This document shows, in pieces, positions 7,137 through 19,424 of a DNA stretch of 40,000 bases (position 1 is the first letter of the stretch; every line of letters begins with the position of its first letter). Below the pieces are notes generated by a model that worked only from the letters and a program-made list of their open reading frames with translations, ran no database searches and was not told the DNA's origin. Source of the DNA: Bacteroides sp. f07 (GTDB lineage: Bacteria > Bacteroidota > Bacteroidia > Bacteroidales > Bacteroidaceae); contig NZ_BAABXI010000001.1 in NCBI RefSeq assembly GCF_042854785.1, forward strand, positions 2,795,656 to 2,835,655. Reading direction: 5' to 3'. A program made the position numbers and the translations under genes.

Positions 7137-7949
7137 TCAGAACATAGCCAGTTGCCCGTCATTTACAAATTTCACCTCAATGGCGGGTTTCTTTTCAAAG
7201 AAACAATAGGCTGCTATTGCTGACAATGCATTTGCTATGAAGTTATTAAATGAACGATGTCTGGAGTGTTCAATCTGTGCAATGTTCTTCAATTCGTCAT
7301 TGACAGTTTCAATCAGAGCTCTCTTCCTAAGCAATATCTTATCAGCGATACTCATCAAGGAGTTCTTCATATTATTCTTGACCTTAGTAATCGTCTGTAT
7401 ACCATTAAGAAAGAGGTTCTCGAACAAAGTCTGACCGATATATCCCTTGTCCGCACACAATTTTCCCTTTATGTTTTCCAGAAACTTTCCTTGTTTCAAT
7501 GGTTCCCTGTCATCCACATTGCCGGGAGTAAACATAAAATTGAGAATCTCTCCTTTATCATTGATTATCAGATGCAGCTTGAATCCGAAGAACCATCCCA
7601 TAGAGCATCTTCCACGCTCGGCAAGTCCTTCGAAAGTCTTGTGAATCAATATTCGTTGGTTACGGCAGACACGGAAGGGAGTGGAATCGACAAAACTGAT
7701 ACCGGTACAACTGCCTAGCAGAACCTTTTTGATGAAAATGGTCAGAGGGAGAAGTATTTCTTTTTCCAGTTCCACAAAACGATTATAAGACACACATCGG
7801 GGAAACATTGGTATGTGAATATCCCAATTCACCACATTTGCAAGATAGTGTAGTTCATCAGGTTGTGTGAATACAGACAAATTGTTTAAGTCAATGTCTG
7901 GATTTCCAATAATGTAGTCATCCATATATTGTTTTACTTCATCTTTCAT
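7137..7949 (-). CDS. IS982-family DDE transposase (copy probably 5'-truncated or degenerate)
   Basis: The 270-aa ORF carries family motifs VSYNRFVEL, GISFVDSTP, GWFFGFKLHLIINDKGEI, NVDDREPL, ADKGY and IETVNDELKN. The N-terminal ~55 aa are shorter and more divergent than I remember for family members. I found no terminal inverted repeats by eye. Confidence 0.8.
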   Translation of the reverse strand: MKDEVKQYMDDYIIGNPDIDLNNLSVFTQPDELHYLANVVNWDIHIPMFPRCVSYNRFVELEKEILLPLTIFIKKVLLGSCTGISFVDSTPFRVCRNQRILIHKTFEGLAERGRCSMGWFFGFKLHLIINDKGEILNFMFTPGNVDDREPLKQGKFLENIKGKLCADKGYIGQTLFENLFLNGIQTITKVKNNMKNSLMSIADKILLRKRALIETVNDELKNIAQIEHSRHRSFNNFIANALSAIAAYCFFEKKPAIEVKFVNDGQLAMF

Positions 7950-7963
7950 ATTTTATTCATATT

Positions 7964-8019
7964 GACGATAATGGGTTGCAGCTTTCCGCCATTAGGCGGA
8001 ACAAGTGCTTGTTAGTAGC
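7964..8019 (-). repeat. attC-like site R1 (distal end of array, 3' of cassette 12)
   Basis: Plus strand: GACGATAATGG GTTGCAGCTTTCCGCC ATTA GGCGGAACAAGTGC TTGTTAGTAGC. Imperfect hairpin with a CCGCC/GGCGG inner stem. The outer arm TTAGTAGC pairs with GCTACTAA in R2. Confidence 0.8.
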
Positions 8020-8020
8020 A

Positions 8021-8689
8021 TCATTCCATTTTATACATTTTTTTCTCCCAACCTTTTAATTCTTGAAGAACAGGTTTAGGATTTTGCAATATCTGATTTA
8101 GAAATTCTATAAAGTTAGGTGCTAATACTTCCGTTGCAGGTGTTTCGTAATCAAAGAGGACAATTGCACCTTCTTTATTCTCATTATCTGTCAATTTAAG
8201 AGCTATCACGCCATAATCAGAATATTGACCTATCGCAAAATACCCTTTATCAAGAATTTCCTCTTGCAGTTCCTTATTATTTTCAATTAGGATTTTATTC
8301 CATGAATGAATGGGCTTTGGATATAGACGAACATCTAAATCCCAAAACATTTCATAAAAGTGTTTATATTTCAAGTAGGTCTTGTATGAAAGCGGAAGGA
8401 TAACATTTAATTTACTTTCTAATTTGGAAATATCCTCGTCTGAAATTTGATTATCTATCACTTTCCATACATGGTCTTTGTCCGTAATAATGTTCACCAT
8501 ATAATTAGTATGTTCCGGTTGAGTGACATATATCTTAACCGATTTCCCTTGAAGTATGCTATTATCTAACGAAGCCTGCATTTCAGGTTCTATGGGTTTC
8601 TCGTAAAAAGGAACATACATAAGATATTCTCTATGTTCTTTCACAAAGCCCAAGCATTCATCTACATATTTCTTTACTACTTCTTCCAT
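8021..8689 (-). CDS. Cassette 12: SMI1/KNR4 (SUKH-type) family protein, putative immunity protein
   Basis: 222-aa ORF. ISDEDISKLESKLNVILPLSYKTYLKY and a later GYFAIGQYSDYGVIALKL...GAIVLFDYE fit the SMI1/KNR4 pattern. No signal peptide. Confidence 0.65.
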   Translation of the reverse strand: MEEVVKKYVDECLGFVKEHREYLMYVPFYEKPIEPEMQASLDNSILQGKSVKIYVTQPEHTNYMVNIITDKDHVWKVIDNQISDEDISKLESKLNVILPLSYKTYLKYKHFYEMFWDLDVRLYPKPIHSWNKILIENNKELQEEILDKGYFAIGQYSDYGVIALKLTDNENKEGAIVLFDYETPATEVLAPNFIEFLNQILQNPKPVLQELKGWEKKMYKME

Positions 8690-8710
8690 ACTATTTTGTT
8701 TTTTAAATTC

Positions 8711-8764
8711 GCTACTAATTGTTTTCAGCTAATTGTTTTCAGTATTTAGTTGTTTGTTAGACCG
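8711..8764 (-). repeat. attC-like site R2 (degenerate, with 14-bp internal duplication)
   Basis: Plus strand: GCTACTAATTGTTTTCAGCTAATTGTTTTCAGTATTTAGTTGTTTGTTAGACCG. CTAATTGTTTTCAG occurs twice in tandem. The core TTGTTA contains the stop codon of cassette 11. Confidence 0.65.
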
Positions 8765-9065
8765 TTCCTAACTTATCATGTAACCCTGTTTGTGATAATA
8801 TTGAATAGAAATTATCAAATTTCCCGATCAGTTCATTAAAAGATGCGAACTCATATCTTTCGGAGAATAAACAATTCCCTGTTTCGATACTAAGGATTTC
8901 CATAACACAAGAATTATCATCCCATAGTGTTACACGACCTAAATTAGTATCATTATCTATATCAACATACATACTATGTACATAATCCGTATTTTCATGT
9001 ATTGTGTATGTACATGACTGATTATTAATCTGTTCTTTTATATAGGAAATGAATTTTCGTATCAT
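8757..9065 (-). CDS. Cassette 11: small hypothetical protein
   Basis: 102-aa ORF, acidic, no signal peptide. The stop TAA is the core TAA of site R2. The ATG is 8 nt downstream of the 3' end of intron 1. Confidence 0.6.
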   Translation of the reverse strand: MIRKFISYIKEQINNQSCTYTIHENTDYVHSMYVDIDNDTNLGRVTLWDDNSCVMEILSIETGNCLFSERYEFASFNELIGKFDNFYSILSQTGLHDKLGTV

Positions 9066-9114
9066 ATTATTTTATCGAGTAGGTCAGCCCTCTTTCGGGG
9101 GCTTTCCCCTCTAA

Positions 9115-9148
9115 GAACCGTACTTGATAGTTTCCCATCATACGGCTC
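9115..9148 (-). ncRNA. Group II intron domain V (copy 1)
   Basis: The minus strand reads GAGCCGTATGATGGGAAACTATCAAGTACGGTTC. It is 34 nt, with the AGC triad, a 2-nt bulge and a GAAA tetraloop. Confidence 0.9.
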
Positions 9149-9186
9149 AAGCATTTCTAAATTTAATTTTCATAAATTAAACCGGC

Positions 9187-10725
9187 TCAACTTACTTTCC
9201 TAAAAGTTTTCCCATTAGTCAGTTCTCGTTTCGCACAGAGTTTCCACGTAAGATATTCCTGCCATTGCGGGTCAAACGGATTGAGTTTTGCTTTGACCTT
9301 TCTATACCTTAAAATAGGGATGTCGGCTAATTGTTCCAACCTTATCCTTTCTTTGTTATCGGCTTTCTTGAAGTCTGTGGCGAACACCCAGTTTCTCTTC
9401 CCTTCCATTTTAAAATATCTCTCCTTTACCCATCGCCAAGTTTTCTTGTCATGTCTTCTGTGTGCCCACCTTTTGAGTTGTTTCACCAGTATGGTGTCCA
9501 GATCGCTGAACGTCTTCTTGGCGGATACAAATCTAAAGTAGTTGCCCCAACCTCTGAGTACCGGATTTAGTTTCCCGATCAAGTCCTCCTGTTTAGCGAC
9601 TTTATTCTTGAAGACCACTTCATGCGTTTTCTCCACAAACCTCTTGATACTCTTCTTTGAGGGTTTAATCAATACGTTCCTTTTATATCTTCGTATGTTA
9701 TATCCCAAGAAGTCGAACCCTTTAGTGATATGGGTTATCAACGTCTTCTCCTGCGAGAGTTCCAGTCCCCTGACGGCTAAAAAGTCTTTTAAGTCCTCCC
9801 TTATCTGTTCTAGCAGTTCCTTTGTGTCCGCTGAGACAACAAAATCATCCGCATAACGTATGAGATGAACTTTGGTACGGTAACGTTTACCGTTCACGTA
9901 CCTTTCTCTGTACTTCATTAGCAACATCTTTTCCATTCCATCCAGTGTGGCGTTTGCAAGTGTTGGCGATATAATACCGCCTTGCGGTGTTCCAGCCGTT
10001 GTAGGAGTGAGCAACTTGTTAAAGATAGCTCCACATTTCAACCACTTTCTTAGTATCTGCTTGTCGATTGGTACATTATCTACAAGCCATTCATGGCTGA
10101 TATTGTCGAAGCATCCTTTGATGTCTCCCTCCAATACCCACATCGGTGGGTTAGGTTGGTGGCTGAACAATATGTGTATCGCATCTATGGCATCTGCCGT
10201 ACTCCTGTATCTTCTGAACCCGTATGAGTTCGGGTCAGCCATTGTTTCCATTACCGGTTCGAGTGCCATTAGATATAACGCCTGCATTGCCCTATCTTTC
10301 ATGGTGGGTATGCCCAGCGGGCGTTTCTTGCCGTTGCTTTTGGCAATGTACACCCTTTTCAGTGGAAGTGGCTTGTAGCCCCTCCGTCTCAACGAAGCAA
10401 CCGCTTCGAGTTTATGCGCTTGGGTAGTCCATTTGATTTGGTCTACCCAAGCGGTTCTTTTTCCTTTGTTGGAAGTAACCCGTTTTACCGCCAGCGCTTT
10501 TGCGGCAAACGAGGTAGTCAGGATACGCTGCAAGGCTTTCACCTTTGCGTATCTCTTTTCCTTTTGAGCCTTTACAATCCGAGCTTGAAGCTTCCGCACA
10601 GCGGTTTGAAGCTTGTTCCAGTCTATGCTGTTCCAAGCCCCTTTGGGTCTGCTCCTGTGTGAAGACGCACACTTTGTTTTCACTCCGTCCATTTGCTTTT
10701 CTCCATTTAAAAGTTCTTCCTTCAT
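9187..10725 (-). CDS. Group II intron reverse transcriptase/maturase (copy 1)
   Basis: RT motifs RPLGIPTMKDRAMQ, TPQGGIISP and YADDFVV. Maturase X domain LNPVLRGWGNYFRF. No HNH/En domain. The start is uncertain: ATG at 10725 or 10692. The track ORF reaches 10875 by read-through of intron RNA sequence. Confidence 0.9.
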   Translation of the reverse strand: MKEELLNGEKQMDGVKTKCASSHRSRPKGAWNSIDWNKLQTAVRKLQARIVKAQKEKRYAKVKALQRILTTSFAAKALAVKRVTSNKGKRTAWVDQIKWTTQAHKLEAVASLRRRGYKPLPLKRVYIAKSNGKKRPLGIPTMKDRAMQALYLMALEPVMETMADPNSYGFRRYRSTADAIDAIHILFSHQPNPPMWVLEGDIKGCFDNISHEWLVDNVPIDKQILRKWLKCGAIFNKLLTPTTAGTPQGGIISPTLANATLDGMEKMLLMKYRERYVNGKRYRTKVHLIRYADDFVVSADTKELLEQIREDLKDFLAVRGLELSQEKTLITHITKGFDFLGYNIRRYKRNVLIKPSKKSIKRFVEKTHEVVFKNKVAKQEDLIGKLNPVLRGWGNYFRFVSAKKTFSDLDTILVKQLKRWAHRRHDKKTWRWVKERYFKMEGKRNWVFATDFKKADNKERIRLEQLADIPILRYRKVKAKLNPFDPQWQEYLTWKLCAKRELTNGKTFRKVS

Positions 10726-11347
10726 TTTGTAAAGAAACACCAGGCAGAAGTCAGCCTGCTTTCGCAGCGGGATAATGTCACCTTGCTTGTCACGCAGGCA
10801 TTGGCTCAATCCCGTATCCTCCCTCATTACAAGGGTGGCATTCGCTTTTTCCACCATCTCATACCCGCATACCATTCGGCTTTACTTACGTTCGGCTTAC
10901 CTGTCATTCATGGCAGGAGATATACGGGCTTACCAAGTTTCGCCCTCCAACTTACGGACGGATTAGGGTCTGTCCATCTGCCGACGGTGCTTTGTCCGTG
11001 TAACCCTCACCAAAAGAAAGGTTATCCGACCGTTTACCATTTTGGTCAAGGCTCGCCAGCATCTTGAGCCTTTCATTAGTCACGACAGTTCCCGACAGTT
11101 CAATTAATTTACCCATACCGTCCAGCTTAGCCCCTTAGTCGCCTGATGCTGGCGGCAGTTGATTCCCCTCACGGTTCTGTCTTCCCTTGCGGCGGGTTCG
11201 TTGTCGAACAGCTTCACACAACGTCATTGCTGGTGATGCATGTGTTCCAAGCTACTGCTGACGGAACAGCAGGTTCAGACAGCCTGTTTTCAACCCGTGA
11301 AATGGGTGCTGAACAATTAAGAGAGGCGACTTGCTTGTCGCACCTCA

Positions 11348-11407
11348 GTTGCTAATGGGTTGCAGCTAATCGCCATTTTAAGGCGATTGAGGTGCATGTT
11401 GTGTTTA
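11348..11407 (-). repeat. attC-like site R3 (occupied by intron 1)
   Basis: Plus strand: GTTGCTAATGGGTTGCAGCTAATCGCC ATTTTA AGGCGATTGAGGTGCA TGTTGTGTTTA. The ORF-proximal core is degenerate (TTGTG instead of TTGTTA; 1-nt deletion). Confidence 0.75.
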
Positions 11408-11427
11408 TTCCTTGCAATTTTAAGAAT

Positions 11428-11766
11428 CTATTCAGTAGTAATATCAAAATCTTGTTTATTTCTCCATGCTATCCTAAGATAATCACCTCTTATTAAACCT
11501 TTATCACGGTAATATCTAACTATTTCAGAGGGCGACCAATCCTTGCCATTGGAAAATAATGTTCCGATTTCTATTAACTTTTGAAAAAGAACTGCACGCT
11601 TTTCAACATCATCAGTAGGCATAGAAATAGAATAGTATGGTTCTACTTTTTCAAATCCAAGACTGATAAGTTCATTCTTAAAATTGTCATTATTATTAGC
11701 TATCAATATATTATTTCCTGCCAATTCAATAGCAACGACTTTATCTTTTAATTTTTCATTCATCAT
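11428..11766 (-). CDS. Cassette 10: small hypothetical protein
   Basis: 112 aa from ATG 11766 (MMNEKLKDK...). The track ORF starts at a GTG at 11775 that lies inside site R4. Confidence 0.6.
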   Translation of the reverse strand: MMNEKLKDKVVAIELAGNNILIANNNDNFKNELISLGFEKVEPYYSISMPTDDVEKRAVLFQKLIEIGTLFSNGKDWSPSEIVRYYRDKGLIRGDYLRIAWRNKQDFDITTE

Positions 11767-11768
11767 AT

Positions 11769-11825
11769 TAAACACTAATGTGTTTCAGCTAACTGCGTTT
11801 AGCTGTTTAGGTGATTGTTATGTGC
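11769..11825 (-). repeat. attC-like site R4
   Basis: Plus strand: TAAACACTAATGTGTTT CAGCTAA CTGCGT TTAGCTG TTTAGGTGATTGTTATGTGC, with a perfect 7-bp stem. The cassette 9 ORF reads through the core and stops in the loop. Confidence 0.75.
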
Positions 11826-12167
11826 CTTATTGTTCTCCTCTTCTATTTTCATAAGAAATATTTCTTGCAAATCGCCACTTATTATTTTACCGTTTAGAGT
11901 TAATTCAAAAAATCCTTCTTGTTCGGCAAAGGATGATACATTATCCAGTTTGGCAAAAACATTAGATAGGGTATCTGTCATAACTAAACGCACGAAAGTT
12001 TTTAGCTCTTTTCGCTGTTTTTCATTCAACTGGCTATATAACTCTTTACTATCATTCCAAGGCTCATAACCACCTTCTATTGATGGAGTATTTAGAGTGT
12101 TGAAATATCGACTTAAGTTATCCATTATTTCTTTTTTTAATGAATTGACAAATTCTACATCATTCAT
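11799..12167 (-). CDS. Cassette 9: small hypothetical protein
   Basis: 122-aa ORF, acidic, no signal peptide. Its 3' end overlaps site R4. Confidence 0.6.
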   Translation of the reverse strand: MNDVEFVNSLKKEIMDNLSRYFNTLNTPSIEGGYEPWNDSKELYSQLNEKQRKELKTFVRLVMTDTLSNVFAKLDNVSSFAEQEGFFELTLNGKIISGDLQEIFLMKIEEENNKAHNNHLNS

Positions 12168-12186
12168 ATTTTTCCATTTTTAAGTT

Positions 12187-12244
12187 GCACATAATGTCCG
12201 GCAGATAATCGACTATTAAGGTACTTTATCTGTTTGTTAGCAAT
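12187..12244 (-). repeat. attC-like site R5
   Basis: Plus strand: GCACATAATGTCCGG CAGATAA TCGACTATTAAGGTACT TTATCTG TTTGTTAGCAAT. The core TTA (12237-12239) is the stop codon of cassette 8. Confidence 0.8.
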
Positions 12245-12551
12245 CTAATTCATTTCCGTTTAATAATTCTATATCTCCTAATGCTTTATATTCCCTGTCC
12301 AAATCTTCTTTTGTGAATAGGTAATAATTGTCCTCAAATCTTGGCATATCATAGCCTTTTACAAAAGATAAGAAAGAGAATATTTCTGCATCTATATCTA
12401 TACCTTGATTATCCTTGTTATCCAAAGCAAATAATAGATTATCAGCTTTCATCGAAATTCTATTTCTAATACCTTCTACATTATATTCTTCATTATCAGG
12501 TAACTCTTTAAGTATCTGATAGAAGTTTATTATCTGTTGTTTTACTTTCAT
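12237..12551 (-). CDS. Cassette 8: small hypothetical protein
   Basis: 104-aa ORF, acidic. The stop codon is embedded in the R5 core. Confidence 0.6.
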   Translation of the reverse strand: MKVKQQIINFYQILKELPDNEEYNVEGIRNRISMKADNLLFALDNKDNQGIDIDAEIFSFLSFVKGYDMPRFEDNYYLFTKEDLDREYKALGDIELLNGNELDC

Positions 12552-12568
12552 TCATAATTTGTTTAGTG

Positions 12569-12624
12569 ATTGCTAATGGGATGCAGCTTGCCGCTGTTAG
12601 GTGGCACAGGTGCTTGTTATAAGC
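12569..12624 (-). repeat. attC-like site R6
   Basis: Plus strand: ATTGCTAATGGGATGCAGCTTGCC GCTGTTA GGTGGCACAGGTGC TTGTTATAAGC. The stem has one bulged base and one C:C mismatch. Confidence 0.8.
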
Positions 12625-13091
12625 TAATTTTCGTATTCAATCTTGTAATCTTCATATACATTGAATACAGTTTCACAATCAGATAAAATACTTTCAAGCA
12701 AAGGTTTGACCTCACTATTCCAATCCAACTTACCCAAACCTGCACCTATTTTCGGGAGCGACACAGTTTTAATACCTCTGCTTTCGCATACTTTTTTCAA
12801 GCGTTTCAAGCCTTTATTCAGATATGTAAGTTCTGCATGATACATATCCGGTTGTGTAGCGATGTAGATTATACCCGGAGAGAAACCTTTGATTTCTCCT
12901 ATAAACATATCACCTGCTTGAAACTTGGTGTTTCGTGTGTACTTCTTAAAGAGTTTTTGGATTTCAGGGAATTGACTTGATAGCTTAAAGGCAAGCCCAG
13001 TTCCTAATCCTTCTTGTGAGCCAACAGCCACACCTTGCGCTATGTACTCATCTTTGCTTTGCAATATATCTCCCGAAATGTATTTTATCAT
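12624..13091 (-). CDS. Cassette 7: macro-domain (ADP-ribose-binding/hydrolase fold) protein
   Basis: 155-aa ORF. MIKYISGDILQSKDEYIAQGVAVGSQEGLGTGLA..., a later KTVSLPKIGAGLG and a small size fit stand-alone macrodomain proteins. Confidence 0.6.
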   Translation of the reverse strand: MIKYISGDILQSKDEYIAQGVAVGSQEGLGTGLAFKLSSQFPEIQKLFKKYTRNTKFQAGDMFIGEIKGFSPGIIYIATQPDMYHAELTYLNKGLKRLKKVCESRGIKTVSLPKIGAGLGKLDWNSEVKPLLESILSDCETVFNVYEDYKIEYEN

Positions 13092-13111
13092 ATTGTTTCC
13101 GTTTTTCTGTT

Positions 13112-13170
13112 GCTTATAATAGGTTTGTGAATAACTGACCGTTAAGGCAGTTCATTCGCTTGTTACCAAT
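13112..13170 (-). repeat. attC-like site R7 (same subfamily as R12)
   Basis: Plus strand: GCTTATAATAGGTTTGTGAATAACTGACC GTTA AGGCAGTTCATTCGC TTGTTACCAAT. In the cassette-sense strand the stem GAATGAACTG/CAGTTATTC has one extrahelical G. Confidence 0.8.
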
Positions 13171-13173
13171 ATT

Positions 13174-13461
13174 TCAATCTCCACTTACCCAAATTGTGTT
13201 TTTATCTATTATCATAGGACGCAAATTCTTAACGAACTCTATTATAATTTTCATTGATTGTTTATCCGACGTCTTTATATAATCATTTGCCAAATTAATA
13301 AGTAATTCAAGATTTTGAGGTATCAATCTTGTATCTCCATATTCATCAATACTCAATCCTGTCTTTACATGAAACTGCAAGAAGACGGGTTGTAATATTC
13401 TCAATTCAACATCATTCAAAGCGAAGTGATGATTATTCATTGTATTGCTAAAATCTAACAT
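13174..13461 (-). CDS. Cassette 6: small hypothetical protein
   Basis: 95-aa ORF with no recognisable motifs. Confidence 0.55.
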   Translation of the reverse strand: MLDFSNTMNNHHFALNDVELRILQPVFLQFHVKTGLSIDEYGDTRLIPQNLELLINLANDYIKTSDKQSMKIIIEFVKNLRPMIIDKNTIWVSGD

Positions 13462-13476
13462 TTCAATTATTTGTTT

Positions 13477-13532
13477 ATTGGTAATGGTAGCTAACCGACC
13501 TTTACGGGGAGGTTAAGCCGCTTGTTACCTGC
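13477..13532 (-). repeat. attC-like site R8
   Basis: Plus strand: ATTGGTAATGGTAGCTAACCGACC TTTAC GGGGAGGTTAAGCCGC TTGTTACCTGC. The cassette-sense stem GCTTAACC/GGTTAGC has one extrahelical T. The core TTA (13525-13527) is the stop codon of cassette 5. Confidence 0.8.
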
Positions 13533-13860
13533 TTTTTCGAGTTATTACAATATCATCAAAACTTAATAGCAAAGACTGACCGTTTGGTCTATATTCCTTC
13601 CAATCTTCAATGTCGGGACTTTCATAATCCATCATTATATGATAAAAGGAGTAAAGACCGAAATTTTCTTGAGGTAAGTCCGGCAGACTATGTATGTCAT
13701 AACATCCAACACCTTCCAATCCTTTTTCTTCAATCCGTTTTAACCATCCTAAAGCCTTATCTATTTGTTGAAGATAGGGAAGTTCCTGTTGATTGCCATG
13801 CTTCAAAGCATCAACAGTTTTTATTCGTTCTTTTTGTAATAACTCAATTATATCTTTCAT
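13525..13860 (-). CDS. Cassette 5: small hypothetical protein
   Basis: 111 aa from ATG 13860 (MKDIIELLQKE...). The track ORF extends to 13950 only because intron domains V/VI happen to be open in frame (MLEPYDGKLSSTVLRGG...). Confidence 0.6.
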   Translation of the reverse strand: MKDIIELLQKERIKTVDALKHGNQQELPYLQQIDKALGWLKRIEEKGLEGVGCYDIHSLPDLPQENFGLYSFYHIMMDYESPDIEDWKEYRPNGQSLLLSFDDIVITRKSR

Positions 13861-13910
13861 TTTATTTATCGGATAGGTCGGAGGCATTGCTGCCCCTTTC
13901 CCCCCCCTAA

Positions 13911-13944
13911 GAACCGTACTTGATAGTTTCCCATCATACGGCTC
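13911..13944 (-). ncRNA. Group II intron domain V (copy 2)
   Basis: Identical 34-nt GAGCCGTATGATGGGAAACTATCAAGTACGGTTC on the minus strand. Confidence 0.9.
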
Positions 13945-14021
13945 AAGCATTTCTAAATTTAATTCTCATAAATTAAACCGGCTCAACTCGCTTTCCTTGA
14001 GGTCTTTCTCTTAGTCAGTTC

Positions 14022-15536
14022 TCATTTAGCACGGAGTTTCCACATCATATATTCCTGCCATTCGGGGGCGAACGGGTTCATTTCTGCTTTAACTTTCCTA
14101 TACCTTAAAATAGGGATGTCGGCTAATTGTTCCAACCTTATCCTTTCTTTTTTATCGGCTTTCTTAGAGTCTGCGGCAAAGCCCCAGTTTCTACGCCCTT
14201 CCGTTTTGAAATATCTCTGTTTCACCCATCGGCGGCTTTTCTTGGGATGTCTTCTGCTTGCCCATCTCTTGAGTTGCCTTACCAAGATGGAGTCCAGATT
14301 GCTGAACGTCTTCTTGGCAGATACAAACCTAAAGTAGTTTCCCCATCCTCTCAGTACGGGATTGAGCTGCATAATCAAATCCCCCTGTTTGGCGGTCTTG
14401 TTCCCGAATATAACCTCGTGAGTCTTTTCCACAAATCTTTTCACGCTCTTCTTTGCGGGTTTTATCAATATGTTCTTTTTGTATCGGCGTATATTGTAAC
14501 CCAAAAAGTCAAAGCCCTCGGTGATATGTGTAATCAGCGTTTTCTCCTCCGATAGTTCCAGCCCCCTGACGGCTAAGAAGTGTTTCAAGTCCTCTTTGAC
14601 TTGTTCCAGCAGTTCCCTTGTGTCAGCTGATACGACAAAGTCATCCGCATAACGTACCAAATGGACTTTGGGGCGATATCGTTTTCCGTTCACGTATCTT
14701 TCCCTGTACTTCTTTAGCAACATCTTTTCCATTCCGTCCAACGTGGCGTTCGCCAACGTCGGCGATATAATGCCACCTTGCGGTGTCCCTGCCGTTGTGG
14801 GGGAGAGTAACTTGTTGAAGACCGCTCCGCATTTCAGCCACTTCTTTAATATCTGCTTGTCGATTTGTACATTATCCACAAGCCACTCGTGGCTGATGTT
14901 GTCAAAGCACCCTTTAATGTCTCCCTCCAGTACCCATTGTGGCGGGTTAGGCTGGTGGCTGAACATTATATGCAGCGCATCTATGGCGTCCGCTGTGCTT
15001 CTGTATCTTCTAAACCCGTATGAATTCGGGTCTGCGGTCGTTTCCGTCACAGGTTCGAGAGCCATCAGATATAATGCCTGCATTGCCCTGTCTTTCATGG
15101 TGGGTATGCCCAACGGGCGTTTCTTGCCATTGCTCTTGGCGATGTACACCCTTTTCAGTGGAAGTGGCTTATAGCCTCTCCGTTTTAACGAAGTTACTGC
15201 TTCGAGCTTTTGCGCTTGGGTAGTCCATTTTATATTGTCCACCCCTGCGGTTCGTTTCCCTTTATTGGAAGTGACACGTTTGACTGCCAGCGCTTTCGCA
15301 GCAAACGAGGTAGTCAAGATACGTTGCAAGGATTTTACCTTGTTGTATCTCTTTTCCTTTTGAGCCTTTACAATCCGTACCTGAAGCTTTCGCACAACAG
15401 CTTGTAGCTTGTCCCAGTCCATACTGTTCCAAGCTCCTTTCGGTCTGCCCCTGCGTGAAGATGCACACTGTGTTTTCACTTCGTTCATTTGCCTTTCTTC
15501 ATTTAAAAGTTCTTCATTCGTTTTGTAAAGAAACAC
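14022..15536 (-). CDS. Group II intron reverse transcriptase/maturase (copy 2)
   Basis: 504-aa ORF that aligns with copy 1 throughout. I counted about 60 substitutions in about 470 aligned residues by hand, with no frameshifts. YADDFVV and the X domain are intact. An alternative start is ATG 15488. Confidence 0.9.
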   Translation of the reverse strand: MFLYKTNEELLNEERQMNEVKTQCASSRRGRPKGAWNSMDWDKLQAVVRKLQVRIVKAQKEKRYNKVKSLQRILTTSFAAKALAVKRVTSNKGKRTAGVDNIKWTTQAQKLEAVTSLKRRGYKPLPLKRVYIAKSNGKKRPLGIPTMKDRAMQALYLMALEPVTETTADPNSYGFRRYRSTADAIDALHIMFSHQPNPPQWVLEGDIKGCFDNISHEWLVDNVQIDKQILKKWLKCGAVFNKLLSPTTAGTPQGGIISPTLANATLDGMEKMLLKKYRERYVNGKRYRPKVHLVRYADDFVVSADTRELLEQVKEDLKHFLAVRGLELSEEKTLITHITEGFDFLGYNIRRYKKNILIKPAKKSVKRFVEKTHEVIFGNKTAKQGDLIMQLNPVLRGWGNYFRFVSAKKTFSNLDSILVRQLKRWASRRHPKKSRRWVKQRYFKTEGRRNWGFAADSKKADKKERIRLEQLADIPILRYRKVKAEMNPFAPEWQEYMMWKLRAK

Positions 15537-16148
15537 CAGACGGAAGTCTGCCTGTTTTCACAGTGGAATGATGTCGCTTCGCTATTTTATATTATGTATG
15601 GCTACGCTCAATTCCTATCCTCCCTCATTACAAGGGTGGCGTTCGCTTTCTCCATCCTCTCATACCCGCATACCGTTCGGCTTTACTTGCGTTCGGCTTA
15701 CCTGCTGTTCATGGCAGGAGATATACGGGCTTACCAAGTTTCGCCCTCCAACTATCGCCCGGGTTAGAGCCCGTCCATCTGACGGCGGTGCTTTGTCCGT
15801 GTAACCCTCACAACAAGAAAGGTTATCCGACCGTTTACCATTTTGGTCAAGGCTCGCCAGCATCTTGAGCCTTTCATTAGTCACGACAGTTCCCGACAGT
15901 TCAATTAATTTACCCATACCGTCCAGCTTAGCCCCTTAGCCACCTGATGCTGGCGGCAGTTGATTCCCCTCGCGGTTCTATCTTCCCTTGTGGCGGGTTC
16001 GTTGTCGAACAGCTCCACACAACGTCATTGCTGGTGATGCATGTGTTCCAAGCTACTGCTGACGGAACAGTAGGTTCAGACAGCCTGTTTTCAACCCGTG
16101 AAATGGGTGCTGAACAATTAAGAGAGGCGACTTGCTTGTCGCACCATT

Positions 16149-16206
16149 GTTGCTAATGTCCAGCGGCTAACTGACTTTTCAGAAGTTAAGCCGTTTGTTA
16201 TCAGTC
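16149..16206 (-). repeat. attC-like site R9 (occupied by intron 2)
   Basis: Plus strand: GTTGCTAATGTCCAGCGGCTAACTGAC TTTTC AGAAGTTAAGCCG TTTGTTATCAGTC. The cassette-sense stem CGGCTTAAC/GTTAGCCG has one extrahelical T. Confidence 0.8.
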
Positions 16207-16212
16207 ATATTT

Positions 16213-16584
16213 TTATTCAGAGCTTTTATATTTACTATATTTCTCAATCCATCCCTCTTGAGAATATAATTCACCACACAATCCATCAGATATGTCAGCC
16301 AAAGATGTCACATCTTTTTCTGAATTAGAAATCTTCCAATCATCAATATCTTGTTCAAAAAAGAACAGAGTATTATGAATTGTGGAATCCACCATTTTAT
16401 AGACTATTTGCCTTATGAGTTCTACATCTTCATTTTTAAGGTTATTTATGGCTTCATGTAGTTTCCGGTCAGATGTACTTTTCATGTGCCCTGAAACAGT
16501 TCCTTCAAAAACAAATAAGCTATTATCCCTTACGCTTTTGACGAAATCTTTTCCAAATTGATTTAGTATTTCTTTTGTTTCCAT
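16213..16584 (-). CDS. Cassette 4: small hypothetical protein
   Basis: 123-aa ORF, acidic, no signal peptide. Confidence 0.6.
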   Translation of the reverse strand: METKEILNQFGKDFVKSVRDNSLFVFEGTVSGHMKSTSDRKLHEAINNLKNEDVELIRQIVYKMVDSTIHNTLFFFEQDIDDWKISNSEKDVTSLADISDGLCGELYSQEGWIEKYSKYKSSE

Positions 16585-16598
16585 TTTATTTCTTTTTT

Positions 16599-16654
16599 GA
16601 CTGATAATGTTTGGCAGCGTGCCGCTTTAAGCGGTGTGCTGTTTGTTAGCAACC
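16599..16654 (-). repeat. attC-like site R10
   Basis: Plus strand: GACTGATAATGTTTGG CAGCGTGCCGC TTTAA GCGGTGTGCTG TTTGTTAGCAACC. On the plus strand the stem holds three G:T wobbles. On the cassette-sense (minus) strand these same positions are A:C mismatches. The cassette 3 ORF reads through the core and stops in the loop. Confidence 0.8.
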
Positions 16655-17028
16655 TCTTTAATACTAACGTCTCCCAACACTACAATATAAGAGTTGAAGG
16701 TCATTCCATTCACTTCTTCTTCATCTCCGTCAGCCTTAACAAGACTTTTAAGAAGGCTTGAAACTGGAACTAATAATTGAGGATTGTCGGTCGATGATTT
16801 ATACTTTGTATAAATCGCATTTATTTGATGGACTGTTCCTTGTAGAGTAAGTAGTCCGTCACTTGTTTCATAATGCGCATCGTAGATATATTCTATTGTT
16901 TGGGTGATGTCAGTTAATGTTTTATTAAAAGCAAAAACATCCCATTTAACCATATCGCCTATGCTGAATGGTTGACCGCAACATTGCATCTGCCATCCTT
17001 CATAAAGTACTGTACAATATGTTTTCAT
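16627..17028 (-). CDS. Cassette 3: small hypothetical protein (EGWQMQCCGxPF motif)
   Basis: 133-aa ORF. The N-terminal Cys-rich motif YEGWQMQCCGQPFSIGDMVKW recurs, as I recall, in uncharacterised small proteins. The 3' end overlaps R10. Confidence 0.6.
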   Translation of the reverse strand: MKTYCTVLYEGWQMQCCGQPFSIGDMVKWDVFAFNKTLTDITQTIEYIYDAHYETSDGLLTLQGTVHQINAIYTKYKSSTDNPQLLVPVSSLLKSLVKADGDEEEVNGMTFNSYIVVLGDVSIKEVANKQHTA

Positions 17029-17044
17029 ATCTTTTATTTTTATT

Positions 17045-17101
17045 GGTTGCTAATGGTTTGCAGCTAATCGCTTTCAGTACGATTAGCCACATGTTATCGG
17101 C
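17045..17101 (-). repeat. attC-like site R11 (looks like an unoccupied intron target)
   Basis: Plus strand: GGTTGCTAATGGTTTGCA GCTAATCG CTTTCAGTA CGATTAGC CACATGTTATCGGC, with a perfect 8-bp inner stem. The left half is nearly identical to R3. Confidence 0.8.
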
Positions 17102-17108
17102 ATATTGA

Positions 17109-17480
17109 TTATTTAATGATAGTCAAATCTCCATCTACAAATCCCACTGCGATATGTTCTACTTTAAAAAGTTTTAAATCAGTAAGATCCTTGATTAAAT
17201 CTTTGAGGATAGGTGCAACAATTTCTAACACTTCTTCCCATTTTAGATTGCCTGAGATTTCAAAATCAGGACAACTCCTTTGAGTTGGTTCAAAACTTTC
17301 ATCACATGCCCAATCTTCATCCTTTTCATCAAACCAAGTAGAGCCGACCATTTCTATGCCATAAGGTTCATAAAGATTAAAGCTCAAAGCCACAATATCA
17401 GAAGGCAATTCTTCTGTTTTATCAATATTGACAATCCATTTTTTGATAATTTCCTTTAAATCATTCGTTTTAGTATTCAT
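17109..17480 (-). CDS. Cassette 2: small hypothetical protein
   Basis: 123-aa ORF, very acidic, no signal peptide. Confidence 0.6.
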   Translation of the reverse strand: MNTKTNDLKEIIKKWIVNIDKTEELPSDIVALSFNLYEPYGIEMVGSTWFDEKDEDWACDESFEPTQRSCPDFEISGNLKWEEVLEIVAPILKDLIKDLTDLKLFKVEHIAVGFVDGDLTIIK

Positions 17481-17514
17481 TTTTCTTCCTATTAAAAATT
17501 AAACATTTTATTAA

Positions 17515-17572
17515 GCCGATAATGGTTTGTGAATAGCTGACCATTAGGGCAGTTCATTCACTTGTTATTCGC
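17515..17572 (-). repeat. attC-like site R12 (same subfamily as R7)
   Basis: Plus strand: GCCGATAATGGTTTGTGAATAGCTGACC ATTA GGGCAGTTCATTCAC TTGTTATTCGC. Confidence 0.8.
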
Positions 17573-17575
17573 ATA

Positions 17576-18202
17576 TTATTCCTGTTGCCAATATGGGTGC
17601 AAAGCTGTTTCAGCTTTGAAATTCGGGATGTTAAATTCATAAATCCAATCAAGGCGAGTCCAAATGCCAGAGTTTTCACCGACCATAAGCATCCTTTCAT
17701 TACAAAAAACAGCTTCCATTTCATAAGGGCGACGACCAATTTCAAAGTTCATAACTATAAACCGAACAGGGGATTTCTCTTGCTTTGGAATCACAATAGA
17801 ATTGCATTGAAAAACCGATTTAGCTTGTTTACCTATGGACTTGTTGTTTTTACTCATTGCTTCAATAGCTTTCTTTGCGTTTCTTGATACCACCTTTGGA
17901 TTGTAACCTGGACCATATTGGGGGTTGATATCAGCAGGCAATAAGTTCATTTGCCTTGATAGCTTTACAAGTCCCTCGATAATCATCTCTTTTATATTCA
18001 TTGGGTTGATTTTACAAAACTCTTCCCATGCGGCAAGTTGTTTTTCTGTAGGAGAATTTTCATCCCCGACATCAAACCACGCAACAAAATCCCCGTCCAA
18101 AGAATTTATGTTAATTGAATGTTCGGTTTCATATAATCCAAGTTCTCCAATTCTCCAAAATTGGGGATTAAAACTTGATATGTTATTTATTGTTTTAGTC
18201 AT
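17576..18202 (-). CDS. Cassette 1: hypothetical protein
   Basis: 208-aa ORF, the first after the recombinase. No signal peptide and no recognisable motifs. Confidence 0.6.
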   Translation of the reverse strand: MTKTINNISSFNPQFWRIGELGLYETEHSININSLDGDFVAWFDVGDENSPTEKQLAAWEEFCKINPMNIKEMIIEGLVKLSRQMNLLPADINPQYGPGYNPKVVSRNAKKAIEAMSKNNKSIGKQAKSVFQCNSIVIPKQEKSPVRFIVMNFEIGRRPYEMEAVFCNERMLMVGENSGIWTRLDWIYEFNIPNFKAETALHPYWQQE

Positions 18203-18214
18203 TTTCTTTCCTTT

Positions 18215-18266
18215 GCGAATAACGTTATGCTAACAGCGGTCATTTAATGTTTCGCTGTTATTTTTT
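18215..18266 (-). repeat. First site of the array (attI-like position, between recombinase stop and cassette 1)
   Basis: Plus strand: GCGAATAACGTTATGC TAACAGCG GTCATTTAATGTTT CGCTGTTA TTTTTT, with a perfect 8-bp stem. In cassette sense the junction core reads ACGTTATTCGC, with G rather than A before TTA, unlike the other sites. Confidence 0.65.
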
Positions 18267-18278
18267 CTAAGTATTTTA

Positions 18279-18719
18279 TTAAATCTCTTCTTCTAAAATA
18301 TCGTCCAACGGACTTTTAATTTTGCTTTTGTAAGTGTCTGCAATATGGACGTACATCTCTGTTGTCTTAATATTTTCATGCCCCAACAGTTCTTTTATGA
18401 TTTTCAAGTCCGTTCCTTGTTCTATTAAATGTGTAGCGAACGAATGGCGGAACAAGTGGGGATATACTCTTTTTGTTATACCTGCTTCATGGGCTATCTC
18501 TTTCAGTTTTTTGGAAACGATACTTTCAGAGAATTGTACTCCGGCTTCACGTTCAAAAAGCCACTTTTCCGACTGATATGCTATCCTATATTCTTCCAGT
18601 TTATTGATAAACGGTTTGGATAGCAGCGTATATCGGTCTTTCTTCCCCTTCCCCTTTCCCTGTCGCACATGTATCAGTGAACAGGAAATGTTTATATCAT
18701 CCGGTTTTAAATTCAGCAT
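18279..18719 (-). pseudogene. Tyrosine recombinase, C-terminal catalytic half only (XerD-like; N-terminal half missing)
   Basis: The 146-aa ORF starts just after where the box-I Arg should be (MLNLKPDDI...). It keeps GKGKKDR, HLFRHSFATHL, LLGHENIKTTEMYVH and the C-terminal IKSPLDDI. Only about 50 aa lie between KDR and GIT, so the IntI-specific extra domain is absent. The upstream sequence is closed by stops in the same frame. Confidence 0.8.
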
Positions 18720-18761
18720 TATGTTAATTCATTTTCTTATCTACTTAATGACAATATTGGG

Positions 18762-18769
18762 CAAATTTA
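18762..18769 (-). promoter_or_regulatory. Candidate -7 promoter box upstream of recombinase remnant and array
   Basis: The minus strand reads TAAATTTG (TAnnTTTG consensus) about 43 nt upstream of ATG 18719. I saw no clear -33 TTTG. Confidence 0.3.
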
Positions 18770-19050
18770 CGCTATTTCCTTCTATTCTCTATTCTGATTT
18801 TCATCACATACATTCTGATAACTCATCAATATCGGTATAACGTCCCTAAAATACGGTTTTATTTCATCACCCACAAAAAAGCTGTTAGTTTTTTCCTCTA
18901 TCCTATAAAATAGTCTCTCTTGACTGGCAATTGCACAATGATCTGTTACATAATTCATAACTATACAATGATCAGTCTCCTATTCTCAGCATTTATAAAT
19001 GCCACTATGAGATCATTGCCGTTCATCGATTTCACCTGATTGTCGAAATA

Positions 19051-19080
19051 CCGATGAATAAGGAGATAGCGGGTGAAAGC
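19051..19080. repeat. Inverted repeat, left copy (core)
   Basis: The reverse complement of CCGATGAATAAGGAGATAGCGGGTGAAAGC matches 19395-19424 at 28 of 30 positions. Weaker similarity extends to roughly 19028-19122. Confidence 0.85.
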
Positions 19081-19162
19081 AAGTGGTAAATTCAAGTAAA
19101 ACTGAACATCAGCGGTTTCACCCTGTCTTTTCAAAATATCCCTTGAGCTAAAACAAATATCA

Positions 19163-19225
19163 TTATAGCTAATCCGGATATGCTTATAGCTAATCGAAAT
19201 ATGCTAATAGCAAATCCGCTGTCAG
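19163..19225. repeat. 3 x 21-bp tandem direct repeat (TTATAGCTAATCnnnATATGC)
   Basis: Units at 19163-19183 (TTATAGCTAATCCGGATATGC), 19184-19204 (TTATAGCTAATCGAAATATGC) and 19205-19225 (TAATAGCAAATCCGCTGTCAG, degenerate). They contain the GCTAAT motif also found in the cassette-site cores. Confidence 0.8.
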
Positions 19226-19246
19226 GTATTAATAGATAATCCATCA

Positions 19247-19334
19247 GGATCTATATATCCAACACATTGAATCTATATACTTACCGCATTGAATCTATAT
19301 ATTCAGCACGGTGGCTCTATATGTCCAGCAATCG
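19247..19334. repeat. 4 x 22-bp tandem direct repeat (GRMTCTATATRYYY...), iteron-like
   Basis: The four units are GGATCTATATATCCAACACATT, GAATCTATATACTTACCGCATT, GAATCTATATATTCAGCACGGT and GGCTCTATATGTCCAGCAATCG. Confidence 0.85.
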
Positions 19335-19394
19335 GTATAAATAAATTTGAAAGGTGAAAGCAATAACGGGAGATTTCACCTTAATTTTCTCTAC

Positions 19395-19424
19395 GCTTTC
19401 ACCCGCTATCTGCTTATTCATCGA
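19395..19424. repeat. Inverted repeat, right copy (core)
   Basis: GCTTTCACCCGCTATCTGCTTATTCATCGA. It lies inside a plus-strand open frame (19347-19529, TTG-initiated) whose translation resembles a recombinase N-terminal SAM-like domain. Confidence 0.85.

Follow-up and report, generated by a model that had tools for sequence, protein, structure and literature searches.

Two diverged group II introns at recombination sites of an interbacterial-defence array in Bacteroides sp. f07

Described intron systems and how the locus compares

T.el4h (Th.e.I3) from Thermosynechococcus elongatus and EcI5 from E. coli are IIB1 introns with chloroplast-like 1 (CL1) reverse transcriptases (RTs); EBS2 of IIB introns lies in an internal loop (PMC8643678). 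The two introns described here, A and B, belong to the window (the whole 40,000-nucleotide stretch of Bacteroides sp. f07 DNA that was analysed). Like T.el4h and EcI5, they have a GUGCG 5' end, an AGC domain V, a hairpin loop carrying EBS1, a domain I internal loop carrying EBS2 and a 5' exon recognised by 6 + 6 bp, and their RT aligns to that of T.el4h over its whole length. However, their target is the repeated core of the recombination sites in an immunity-gene array, whereas that of T.el4h and EcI5 is a single homing site. Their EBS2 covers positions -14 to -9, while position -14 of EcI5 belongs to a separate IBS2a pairing immediately upstream of IBS2. Unlike T.el4h, they encode no C-terminal extension, the RT aligning only to residues 18-477 of the 562-aa solved protein.

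The IIC-attC introns of integrons (e.g., S.ma.I2) are also En-less group II introns and colonise recombination sites of cassette arrays, which gives them many equivalent targets per genome. Unlike A and B, they belong to class C and lack EBS2. Class C introns have no EBS2 and an EBS1 of only 3-4 bp. The IIC-attC introns recognise the folded bottom strand of attC and TTGT/T in R''; their orientation is antisense to the cassettes (PMC7923331), as an initial annotation of the window had stated. In contrast, the introns described here are IIB1/CL1 elements in sense orientation. They pair with the core on the top strand, at the R' end, and hairpin-free places are also among their insertion points.

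Sonbol and Siam (2021, PMC7923331) described one IIB1/CL1 intron, UHB.I2, just past an attC site in metagenomic DNA from a hypersaline lake. It shares with A and B its class, an RT without endonuclease, the orientation of the cassettes, a position adjoining the 3' side of the recombination site and an AT-rich 3' exon. However, UHB.I2 occurs once, in a classical integron or CALIN; its boundaries are atypical (UUGCG...GU) and its flanking exons show no conserved sequence. A and B, by contrast, belong to a multi-copy lineage of gut Bacteroides: they lie in a rAID-1 array, their IBS2 is a defined, conserved part of the site core, and their EBS1 exists in covarying alleles.

RmInt1 from Sinorhizobium meliloti (IIB, class D) is likewise En-less and targets a repeated element via EBS1 and EBS2. 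At replication forks it prefers the lagging-strand template in single-stranded form (PMC8643678); the introns described here would use the same strand and might share the dependence on forks. They differ by their RT class and by their target, which for RmInt1 is not a recombination site but the insertion sequence ISRm2011-2.

The array and the anatomy of the two introns

The introns are carried by an array whose limits were drawn from the ORF list, Pfam, G+C content and the published definition of recombinase-associated interbacterial-defence (rAID) arrays.

7950..18278, minus strand: rAID-1-type array
18279..18719, minus strand: truncated tyrosine recombinase of the array (Pfam PF00589, profile positions 42-170 only)

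It holds 14 short, co-oriented cassettes of low G+C (0.35-0.41 vs 0.42-0.44 in the flanks), encoding SUKH, Macro, TriTu, DUF6578 and other families (Pfam) and separated by sites of the form TAACAA...hairpin...CATTA. The initial annotation counted 7 and 2 cassettes downstream of the introns; the ORF count gives 6 intact ones between the introns, then 2 intact and one IS-disrupted after intron B. Under the definition used (10.1101/471110, Ross et al., bioRxiv; PMC12247911), this is a rAID-1 array and not a classical integron. Like the rAID-1 arrays of Bacteroidales (Ross et al. 2019), it combines a co-oriented tyrosine recombinase, short low-G+C orphan-immunity cassettes, repeated intergenic motifs and a Bacteroides host. 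However, its recombinase, 146 aa long and read in the same direction as the cassettes, is truncated: compared with the 238-aa gene of L082, a 289-bp deletion took the box I arginine together with the N-terminal domain. The rAID literature searched mentions neither introns nor reverse transcriptases in such arrays and holds no report of this intron lineage.

Both introns are complete:

13868..16144, minus strand: intron A, 2277 nt (Rfam RF02012 and RF00029 above threshold)
13911..13944, minus strand: domain V of intron A, 34 nt with AGC triad (domain VI branch-point A at 13874)
14022..15488, minus strand: RT/maturase ORF of intron A (ATG at 15488; RVT_N, RVT_1 with YADD, GIIM; no En)
9074..11343, minus strand: intron B, 2270 nt (Rfam, alignment to A, domain V/VI fold)
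9115..9148, minus strand: domain V of intron B (domain VI branch-point A at 9080)
9187..10692, minus strand: RT/maturase ORF of intron B (homologous ATG at 10692; the mechanical ORF reaches 10875)

The domain I model RF02012 matches them at 96 and 101 bits (threshold 34) and the domain V/VI model RF00029 at 63.5 and 68.1 bits (threshold 40). Each begins with GTGCG (16144-16140 in A), has a domain V of 34 nt that carries an AGC triad, and folds a domain VI in which a single A bulges out, 7 nt before the 3' end. Intron A ends in ...CCGAU, with 13868 as last nucleotide; its boundaries come from the A-B alignment and from intron-free array homology, which starts exactly at 13867. Both RT ORFs are uninterrupted, with Pfam RVT_N, RVT_1 and GIIM domains and YADD, and Pfam finds no HNH/En domain in either; the 562-aa form of the intron B protein is annotated as 'group II intron reverse transcriptase/maturase [Bacteroides sp. 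f07]'. The initial description of two complete introns, with these terminal hallmarks and intact En-less RT/maturases, is thus borne out.

The best solved relative of the RT is the T.el4h maturase (6me0_C; 532 bits, E 1.2e-158, over 469 residues), while the same RT scores 160 bits against LtrA and 117-124 bits against class C RTs. By this likeness to one solved CL1 protein, the introns are assigned to En-less members of group IIB1 (chloroplast-like 1). They are 85.7% identical overall and about 97% identical across the first 330 nt of domain I; the overall value rules out that they are recent duplicates. Their RTs share 86.8% protein identity, with a dN/dS of about 0.08 and a dS of about 0.9, the former showing purifying selection on both ORFs.

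Insertion points and exon pairing

Intron A follows the 123-aa cassette, in one of 12 inter-cassette sites that share one plan, and intron B follows the 115-aa cassette:

16145..16200, minus strand: rAID site holding intron A, with TAACAAAC, the imperfect hairpin GGCTTAAC/GTTAGCC and CATTAGCAAC
11344..11407, minus strand: rAID site holding intron B, from the sequence

The 5' exon ...CATTAGCAACAATG and the 3' exon AAATAAAATG flank intron A; ...CATTAGCAACTGAG and AAAATAATATG flank intron B. The equal offset initially reported is correct, each intron starting 4 nt past CATTAGCAAC, which is 14 nt past the C of CATTAG. So is the orientation: both are in sense to the cassettes, on the minus strand, with the next ATG 7 nt (A) and 8 nt (B) after the intron. 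However, they had been placed directly after the stem-loop, and the site hairpin stops several nucleotides upstream of the core. In comparisons with related arrays, array-to-array homology breaks in or beside ATTA; because cassette homology breaks at this core, the intron sits in the leader of the next cassette. The 5' and 3' exons of intron A are unlike one original leader in the same comparisons.

The elements of the pairing are the following:

15875..15880, minus strand: EBS2 of intron A, CUAAUG, at intron positions 265-270; unpaired, in an internal loop of domain I
15810..15815, minus strand: EBS1 of intron A, UGUUGU, at intron positions 330-335; in the terminal loop on a 7-bp stem
11074..11079, minus strand: EBS2 of intron B, CUAAUG, the same as in A
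11009..11014, minus strand: EBS1 of intron B, UUUGGU, differing from A at two positions
16145..16158, minus strand: 5' exon target of intron A, IBS2 CATTAG (16158-16153), spacer CA, IBS1 ACAATG (16150-16145)
11344..11357, minus strand: 5' exon target of intron B, IBS2 CATTAG (11357-11352), spacer CA, IBS1 ACTGAG (11349-11344)

EBS2 is complementary to the conserved core CATTAG at -14 to -9, and EBS1 pairs with the six variable bases at -6 to -1, 6/6 for A with ACAAUG and 6/6 for B with ACUGAG. The two differences between the EBS1 sequences follow those between the exon ends; paired by hand with the site of the other intron, either EBS1 reaches only 4/6. When each intron's own EBS1 and EBS2 were matched against both strands of the intron-less window, its own site ranked first among about 71,000 positions, with 12/12 bases paired, which goes beyond chance. 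Pairing, which the initial annotation had left to be looked for, therefore exists at both sites and varies with the exon ends.

Relatives support these assignments. In the consensus fold of 46 of them, all seven stem pairs of the EBS1 hairpin hold in at least 44, six with compensatory changes, while the EBS2 column is unpaired and covaries with each relative's 5' exon. Among 56 junctions, EBS1 pairs 6/6 with its own exon in 33; the rate with other introns' exons is 10%. Pairing is sometimes imperfect: IBS2 is shifted by 1 nt in 3/14 distinct junctions, and only 3-4/6 bases of IBS1 pair at L123 and L101. EBS3 and EBS2a were not located in A and B. As far as can be seen, the introns choose their sites by base pairing to the conserved core, and the hairpin is apparently not the determinant.

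Relatives at other sites, alternatives and proposed mobility

Near-identical relatives occur in gut metagenomes at 14 or more distinct 5' junctions. Among 14 of these, 11 lie in TAACAA-hairpin-CATTA (rAID-like) sites, all in sense, so the association with this kind of site extends beyond the window. The three others have neither TAACAA box nor hairpin but keep CATTA at -14 or -15. CATTA is thus present at 14/14 junctions, at a constant distance of 14 or 15 nt, while the offset to GCAAC varies (1, 4 or 5 nt); position +1 is A at 13 of 16 distinct 3' junctions. In short-read contigs across near-identical introns, the pairing of 5' and 3' flanks may be chimeric. Copies are 99.5-100% identical at 7 junctions in one sub-lineage and at 5 in the other, which suggests recent mobility. 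The hairpin may still contribute, e.g., by exposing the core in single-stranded DNA; its presence at 11/14 sites is confounded with that of the core.

With a probability of about 85%, A and B are two diverged members of one canonical En-less IIB1 lineage specialised on rAID-1 sites of Bacteroidales. That they are assembly artefacts or relics without present activity is very improbable. For each of the two lineages in the window, A and B, only one 5' site was found, and frameshifted or interrupted copies exist elsewhere (L090, L091, L093); but the ORFs with their YADD motif are intact and under constraint, as is every ribozyme hallmark, the source contig measures 3.7 Mb, the junctions recur in independent assemblies (those of intron B in L090-L097, L105 and L106), and the sister sub-lineages are nearly invariant across their 7 and 5 junctions.

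Could the common offset be inherited, a single insertion having been spread by cassette duplication or by movement through the recombinase? An intron 9 nt past the inferred crossover formally belongs to the next cassette and could move along with it, and the start of domain I is well conserved between A and B. Nevertheless, this origin is highly unlikely: the cassettes and sites around A and B are unrelated, the introns differ by 14% (RT dS about 0.9), each EBS1 matches the exon of its own intron but not that of the other, near-identical relatives occupy a dozen other sites with other cassettes, and the recombinase of the f07 array is truncated.

Hardly credible is the parallel with class C and IIC-attC introns drawn in the initial annotation, by which the folded site hairpin and a 3-4 nt motif would be recognised and the offset would be a distance from the stem-loop: an imperfect hairpin does precede both window insertions and 11/14 lineage junctions, and class C RTs also lack an endonuclease, but the RT falls outside the stem-loop-targeting class by its scores (532 bits to CL1 T.el4h vs 117-124), the domain V triad is AGC whereas that of class C is CGC (PMC7923331), covarying 6-bp EBS2-IBS2 and 6-bp EBS1-IBS1 pairings exist, three insertions are hairpin-free, and it is the distance to CATTA, not to GCAAC, that is fixed.

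The core lies on the sense strand, and therefore every in-site insertion is in sense, 9 nt downstream of ATTA. EBS1 occurs as two alleles, UGUUGU (A) and UUUGGU (B), fitting different cassette leaders. By analogy with other group II introns, the array transcript would carry the intron and the RT/maturase would aid splicing, restoring the leader; the lariat RNP would then reverse-splice into other sites. Being without endonuclease, it would use the single-stranded lagging-strand template at forks, with the nascent lagging strand priming cDNA synthesis. Between 8 and 40 kb, plus-strand GC skew ranges from -0.13 to -0.20, and almost every gene lies on the minus strand; G is enriched on the sense strand, which would be the lagging-strand template if the direction of replication is read from GC skew alone. 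Unspliced copies may reduce the expression of downstream cassettes, and several copies could supply homology for intra-array rearrangements.

In the window, the leader of the Macro cassette also contains a near-cognate target that is empty:

13107..13121, minus strand: TATTAT-AA-GCAACA followed by G, with predicted insertion between 13108 and 13107

It is the third-best site for A-type EBS sequences (11/12). The same position is filled in L115 (5' exon ending in CCATTATAAGCAACT) and gives the 3' exon GAAAAACGG in L105, L106, L110 and L111.

Two introns of probable IIB1/CL1 type

The two group II introns of the window lie on the minus strand and were delimited from their own sequence and from their alignment with each other.

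Intron A: 16144→13868, minus strand, 2277 nt
Intron B: 11343→9074, minus strand, 2270 nt

Their exon junctions (...CATTAGCAACAATG|A|AAATAAAATG and ...CATTAGCAACTGAG|B|AAAATAATATG) are those already written in the initial annotation. Both introns begin with GTGCG (A at 16144, B at 11343), in agreement with the group II consensus GUGYG. The Rfam matches in the window consist of two domain I and two domain V/VI, arranged as two colinear sets: RF02012 (domain I, threshold 34) gives 96 bits for A and 101 bits for B with the full model covered, and RF00029 (domain V/VI, threshold 40) gives 63.5 and 68.1 bits, respectively. Domain I is also alignable by nhmmer with domain I of 80 relatives. In both introns, domain V has 34 nt with an AGC triad, and domain VI folds with a single bulged A located 7 nt from the 3' end. 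The RT/maturase ORF of each is free of interruptions; its product matches the full RVT_N, RVT_1 and GIIM profiles of Pfam and carries YADD, and the Pfam search found no HNH/En domain in either protein. The initial description of two complete introns lacking an endonuclease domain thus holds.

The RTs of A and B are 86.8% identical with a dN/dS of ~0.08, which indicates that purifying selection kept both of them. At the nucleotide level, the introns share 85.7% identity overall, a value that rises to ~97% in the first 330 nt of domain I. Judged from these identities, A and B are related lineages and not the products of a recent duplication. An exact look-up of the 504-aa mechanical ORF of RT A found no exact protein match. 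Just upstream of both RT start codons lies a conserved hairpin followed by GTGTTTCTTT (10741-10758 and 15537-15554, minus strand). A terminator scan flagged this weak hairpin; it is more likely a domain IVa stem binding the RT than a terminator. A sigma-70 promoter scan, whose model does not cover Bacteroides promoters, gave promoter-like sites at chance level.

The initial annotation likened these introns to class C, in particular to the IIC-attC introns that target stem-loops in integrons. The RT aligns end to end with the T.el4h maturase (6ME0 chain C; 532 bits, E 1.2e-158); against LtrA its score is 160 bits, and the class C RTs 7UIM and GsI-IIC (6ar1) give 124 and 117 bits, respectively. 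Its best solved relative is by far this CL1 protein, ML and class C proteins reaching at most 160 bits; the intron T.el4h (Th.e.I3) belongs to IIB1 and its RT to CL1 (PMC8643678). Membership of the RTs in CL1 is therefore strongly indicated by the scores against solved RT proteins. In the same way, the AGC triad of domain V argues against class C, whose triad is CGC (PMC7923331).

The rAID-1 array and its sites

The introns reside in an array of 14 short co-oriented ORFs located between 18278 and ~7950, with a G+C content of 0.35-0.41 versus 0.42-0.44 in the flanks. On the same strand, the array is preceded by a recombinase remnant, recognized by Pfam and by comparison with a locus from other assemblies, L082 (1995-2711).

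Tyrosine-recombinase fragment: 18279-18719, minus strand, upstream of the cassettes

Arrays of the rAID-1 type, known from Bacteroidales, comprise a tyrosine recombinase followed by at least two co-oriented short genes of less than 41% G+C with conserved intergenic motifs (10.1101/471110; PMC12247911). The window array, from Bacteroides sp. f07, displays the same-strand recombinase fragment, the 14 low-G+C cassettes and 12 inter-cassette sites that all consist of TAACAA(R)C followed by an imperfect hairpin and by [C/T/A]ATTA[G/T/C]. Predicted immunity proteins, as expected of rAID-1 cassettes, are encoded in the window (SUKH/SMI1_KNR4, TriTu, Macro, DUF6578) and in sister arrays from other samples (Imm9, Imm10, Imm19, Imm21, Imm42, Imm44). 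Integrons have an IntI-type integrase divergent from the array and attC sites with R'' RYYYAAC and R' GTTRRRY. The recombinase of the present array is compact (238 aa in L082) and points in the same direction as the cassettes. Although the plan of its sites (TAAC...hairpin...ATTA) is analogous to that of attC, they end with CATTAG in place of GTTRRRY. The context is thus an rAID-1 array and no classical integron.

Compared with the 238-aa gene of L082, 289 bp are missing from the window recombinase: it starts with MLNLKPDD..., and both the box I arginine (AGLRISE) and the N-terminal domain are absent. Read from its sequence, the recombinase is probably inactive here, and the array would probably be immobile unless served in trans. 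Similarly shortened products are called in loci L105, L108, L109 and L112 (146 aa) and L107 (144 aa).

When the same cassettes are compared across arrays, homology breaks within or right beside the ATTA core. For example, CATTA|TGTGCAAC is found versus CATTA|CCAGCTATC, ATTATAAGCAAC is common to the right of different upstream sites, and the break lies at GTTA| in the site that follows the recombinase gene. We infer that the recombinase would cross over at the ATTA core, the introns lying 9 nt downstream, in the leader of the next cassette. The site after the recombinase gene (18221-18270, minus strand; TAACAGCG...CCGCTGTTAGCATAACGTTA|) is constant up to GTTA and then varies with the first cassette, as seen against 2720-2790 of L082; it behaves like a primary site of the attI type. 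L082 has the TriTu cassette in first place; in the window, this cassette comes after intron B.

At the other end, the reading frame of the last cassette (7137-7949, minus strand) continues into the C-terminal part of a DDE transposase (Pfam DDE_Tnp_1_3, DDE_Tnp_1), which we take from its sequence to be IS982-like; an IS fragment thus marks the distal end of the array. Between a 162-aa gene and the recombinase fragment, ~1.1 kb (18720-19840) carries no minus-strand ORF of at least 60 aa and contains short direct repeats, tatatagattcaatg occurring two to three times and gattagctataa about three times.

Probable target recognition by base pairing

By eye, EBS2 (CUAAUG, intron positions 265-270) is complementary to the core CATTAG at -14..-9, and the EBS1 loop (intron positions 330-335) to positions -6..-1 of the 5' exon. 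EBS1 is UGUUGU in A, pairing 6/6 with ACAAUG, and UUUGGU in B, pairing 6/6 with ACUGAG, so that the complementarity to the exon ends sought in the initial annotation can be drawn for both. The EBS1 loops of A and B differ at only two positions, both following exon differences, and hand pairing of either site with EBS1 of the other intron reaches only 4/6. When every position of the intron-less window was scanned on both strands (~71,000 positions), the own site of each intron came out as its single best, with 12/12 paired. The third-best is an empty site:

Empty A-type target: TATTAT-AA-GCAACA|G, insertion point 13108|13107, leader of the Macro cassette

This position is occupied in locus L115, with its own 5' exon CCATTATAAGCAACT|, and gives the 3' exon GAAAAACGG in L105, L106, L110 and L111. 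Among the empty rAID-like sites collected, 22 of 70 would pair at 11/12 or better with one or other EBS1 allele. Since the regex survey of 80 rAID-like sites presupposes ATTA, conservation of the core rests on the 12 inter-cassette sites of the window.

The same segments were mapped in the wider family, from an alignment of domain I of 64 introns whose RTs are 53-66% identical. Their EBS columns change with the 5' exon of each intron (CCAUGG/CCGUGG, CCACGUU/AACGUGG, UGUCA/UGACA), and EBS1 pairs 6/6 with its own exon in 33 of 56 junctions, versus 10% with the exons of other introns. In the RNAalifold consensus of 46 relatives, EBS1 forms the loop that closes a 7-bp hairpin, whose stem shows many compensatory pairs, and EBS2 is an unpaired internal stretch, which is the IIB arrangement (PMC8643678). 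Of the 16 distinct 3' junctions, 13 have A at +1, which would suit a U at EBS3. Another register of EBS1, CUUGUUG with CAACAA at -8..-3, was discarded because the splice junction would stay unpaired and because this pairing does not hold at other junctions.

Junctions of the lineage were collected by look-ups of the closest RTs and neighbouring cassettes and by scanning metagenome contigs with the first 30 nt of the intron; the close relatives were thus retrieved via P0001 and P0004, neighbouring cassette proteins and the DNA scan of the intron 5' end. The RT scan of reference genomes yielded only relatives at most 64% identical, located in coding sequences and in a conjugative element, which served for mapping EBS1 and EBS2 and were left out of the site association. 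The collection holds 14 distinct 5' junctions, all from human-gut material. Eleven are at rAID-like sites, always in sense; on recombination sites as targets, on sense orientation and on the association with these sites, the initial annotation was right. The other three are:

L120: inside a gene, sense
L123/L126: near the start of a secreted-protein gene, antisense
L099: in the H-box of a histidine kinase

These three junctions have no TAACAA box and weak or no upstream folding, and they carry CATTA[G/A] at -14 or -15. Over the whole set, the distance to CATTA is 14 nt at 11 junctions and 15 nt at 3, whereas the distance to GCAAC varies (1, 4 or 5 nt). A fixed offset of 4 nt after CATTAGCAAC was rejected, as GCAAC lies 1 or 5 nt away elsewhere while CATTA stays at -14/-15. 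The nearly constant CATTA distance and the insertions without hairpin are what recognition by base pairing predicts, unlike recognition of a hairpin. The hairpin, whose presence is confounded with that of the core, may possibly contribute to site choice.

The class C-like reading therefore fails. Class C introns lack EBS2, pair EBS1 with IBS1 over only 3-4 bp and have the CGC triad, whereas a 6-bp EBS2-IBS2, a 6-bp EBS1-IBS1 and AGC are found here (class C features from PMC7923331); IIC-attC introns insert after a stem-loop, in the attC bottom strand and antisense, whereas all 11 rAID-like insertions are in the top strand and in sense. Together with the RT scores (532 bits for CL1 versus 117-124 for class C) and the three hairpin-less insertions, this strongly indicates that the introns are canonical IIB1/CL1-type introns, probably guided by EBS2 and EBS1.

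The sense orientation results from pairing to a motif of the top strand. From 8 to 40 kb, the plus-strand GC skew is -0.13 to -0.20 and nearly all genes are on the minus strand; the negative skew makes the sense strand the G-rich strand. The G-rich strand is usually the template of lagging-strand synthesis. Introns without En such as RmInt1 prefer the lagging-strand template (PMC8643678). Going by the skew, the sense strand of the introns would be the lagging-strand template, fitting introns that lack En.

Niche, mobility and possible array rearrangements

The IIC-attC introns occupy an analogous niche in integrons, but they belong to class C, recognize the folded bottom strand and lie antisense (PMC7923331). 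The nearest known parallel is UHB.I2: this IIB1/CL1 intron, present as a single copy in a soda-lake metagenome, lies in sense just downstream of an attC, and no conserved exon sequence was found for it (PMC7923331). Compared with UHB.I2, the present introns add a multi-copy lineage, an IBS2 inside the core of the site and two EBS1 alleles, and they occupy another type of array, rAID-1 in gut Bacteroides. The words intron and reverse transcriptase are absent from the rAID descriptions (10.1101/471110; PMC12247911), and literature searches found no report of group II introns together with rAID arrays. This is thus a known kind of intron in a newly described homing niche, the rAID sites. An En-less lineage of probable IIB1 type has converged on recombination sites repeated along cassette arrays, a niche known from the IIC-attC introns, by another mode of recognition: EBS2 would read the conserved core and two EBS1 alleles fit the variable leader. 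Its orientation, sense, is also the opposite one.

Two sub-lineages, one with UGUUGU and the other with UUUGGU, are 99.5-100% identical across 7 and 5 junctions; near-identical copies at several junctions indicate that the family was mobile recently. The EBS1 alleles run against the overall intron phylogeny (loci L098-L101 and L115-L127 versus window A and B): the two sub-lineages are 97.5% identical and differ in EBS1 allele, and the L115 intron is 93.5% identical to B yet carries the A allele. This distribution points to repeated switching or to recombination within the highly conserved domain I. An apparently active IIB1 intron native to Bacteroides, with targeting rules that seem readable from its sequence, could seed targetron-type tools for gut Bacteroidales.

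In nearly every human gut microbiome, arrays of the rAID type are both abundant and expressed; the way in which they are constructed has been posed as a question (PMC12247911). A 2.3-kb mobile ribozyme between a site and an immunity gene could alter the expression of downstream cassettes. It could, in addition, promote rearrangements of rAID arrays and fragment their short-read assemblies.

The surroundings of intron A bear on this point. Homology with intron-free arrays carrying the 111-aa cassette begins exactly at +1 of the 3' exon (13867), and the 9 nt upstream of the junction are GCAACAATG in the window versus CCTGCTAAG in these arrays; the 5' exon (16145) and the 3' exon of intron A thus do not make the leader of the 111-aa cassette of intron-free arrays. 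By hand pairing, CCTGCTAAG| is 6/6 for the UUUGGU allele and GCAACA| is 6/6 for UGUUGU. In L105, L106, L110 and L111, the same 5' exon and an A-type intron lead straight into the Macro cassette, and the gap left by the missing 111-aa and 95-aa cassettes lies precisely at the splice junction. Cassette insertion by the recombinase does not account for this difference, as a crossover at ATTA puts new cassettes upstream of the intron. The data rather suggest homologous recombination between intron copies in different leaders, or assembly chimeras: short-read contigs across near-identical 2.3-kb repeats may be chimeric, which bears on the arrangement of the L105 type.

That the introns are more than parasites and take part in array dynamics, even in cassette genesis, is an unlikely proposition. 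Spread over the leaders of various cassettes and over ordinary genes, intron copies would provide portable homology, and through recombination between them segments could be lost, exchanged or joined precisely at splice junctions. An intron that encodes an RT and lies in sense between a site and the following ORF could join new genes to sites. The IIC-attC introns were reportedly proposed by Léon and Roy to join new genes to sites in integrons. Hints in this direction come from one contig in which the intron connects the 5' exon of a histidine kinase with a cassette leader, from the two-cassette difference between strains at the 3' junction of intron A, and from the exons of intron A, which do not make up one cognate leader.

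Two further arrangements were encountered. On one metagenome contig (L093, 1781-4999), the RT ORF of intron B is broken by three tandem tyrosine-recombinase genes, an arrangement that resembles a "recombinase in trio" element. In L081 (10001-12499), an RT relative is an 832-aa ORF with the order RVT_N-RVT_1-GIIM-RVT_1-GIIM, which may be a nested or tandem intron and lies beside genes for a relaxase, TraG and ParA that belong to a conjugative element.
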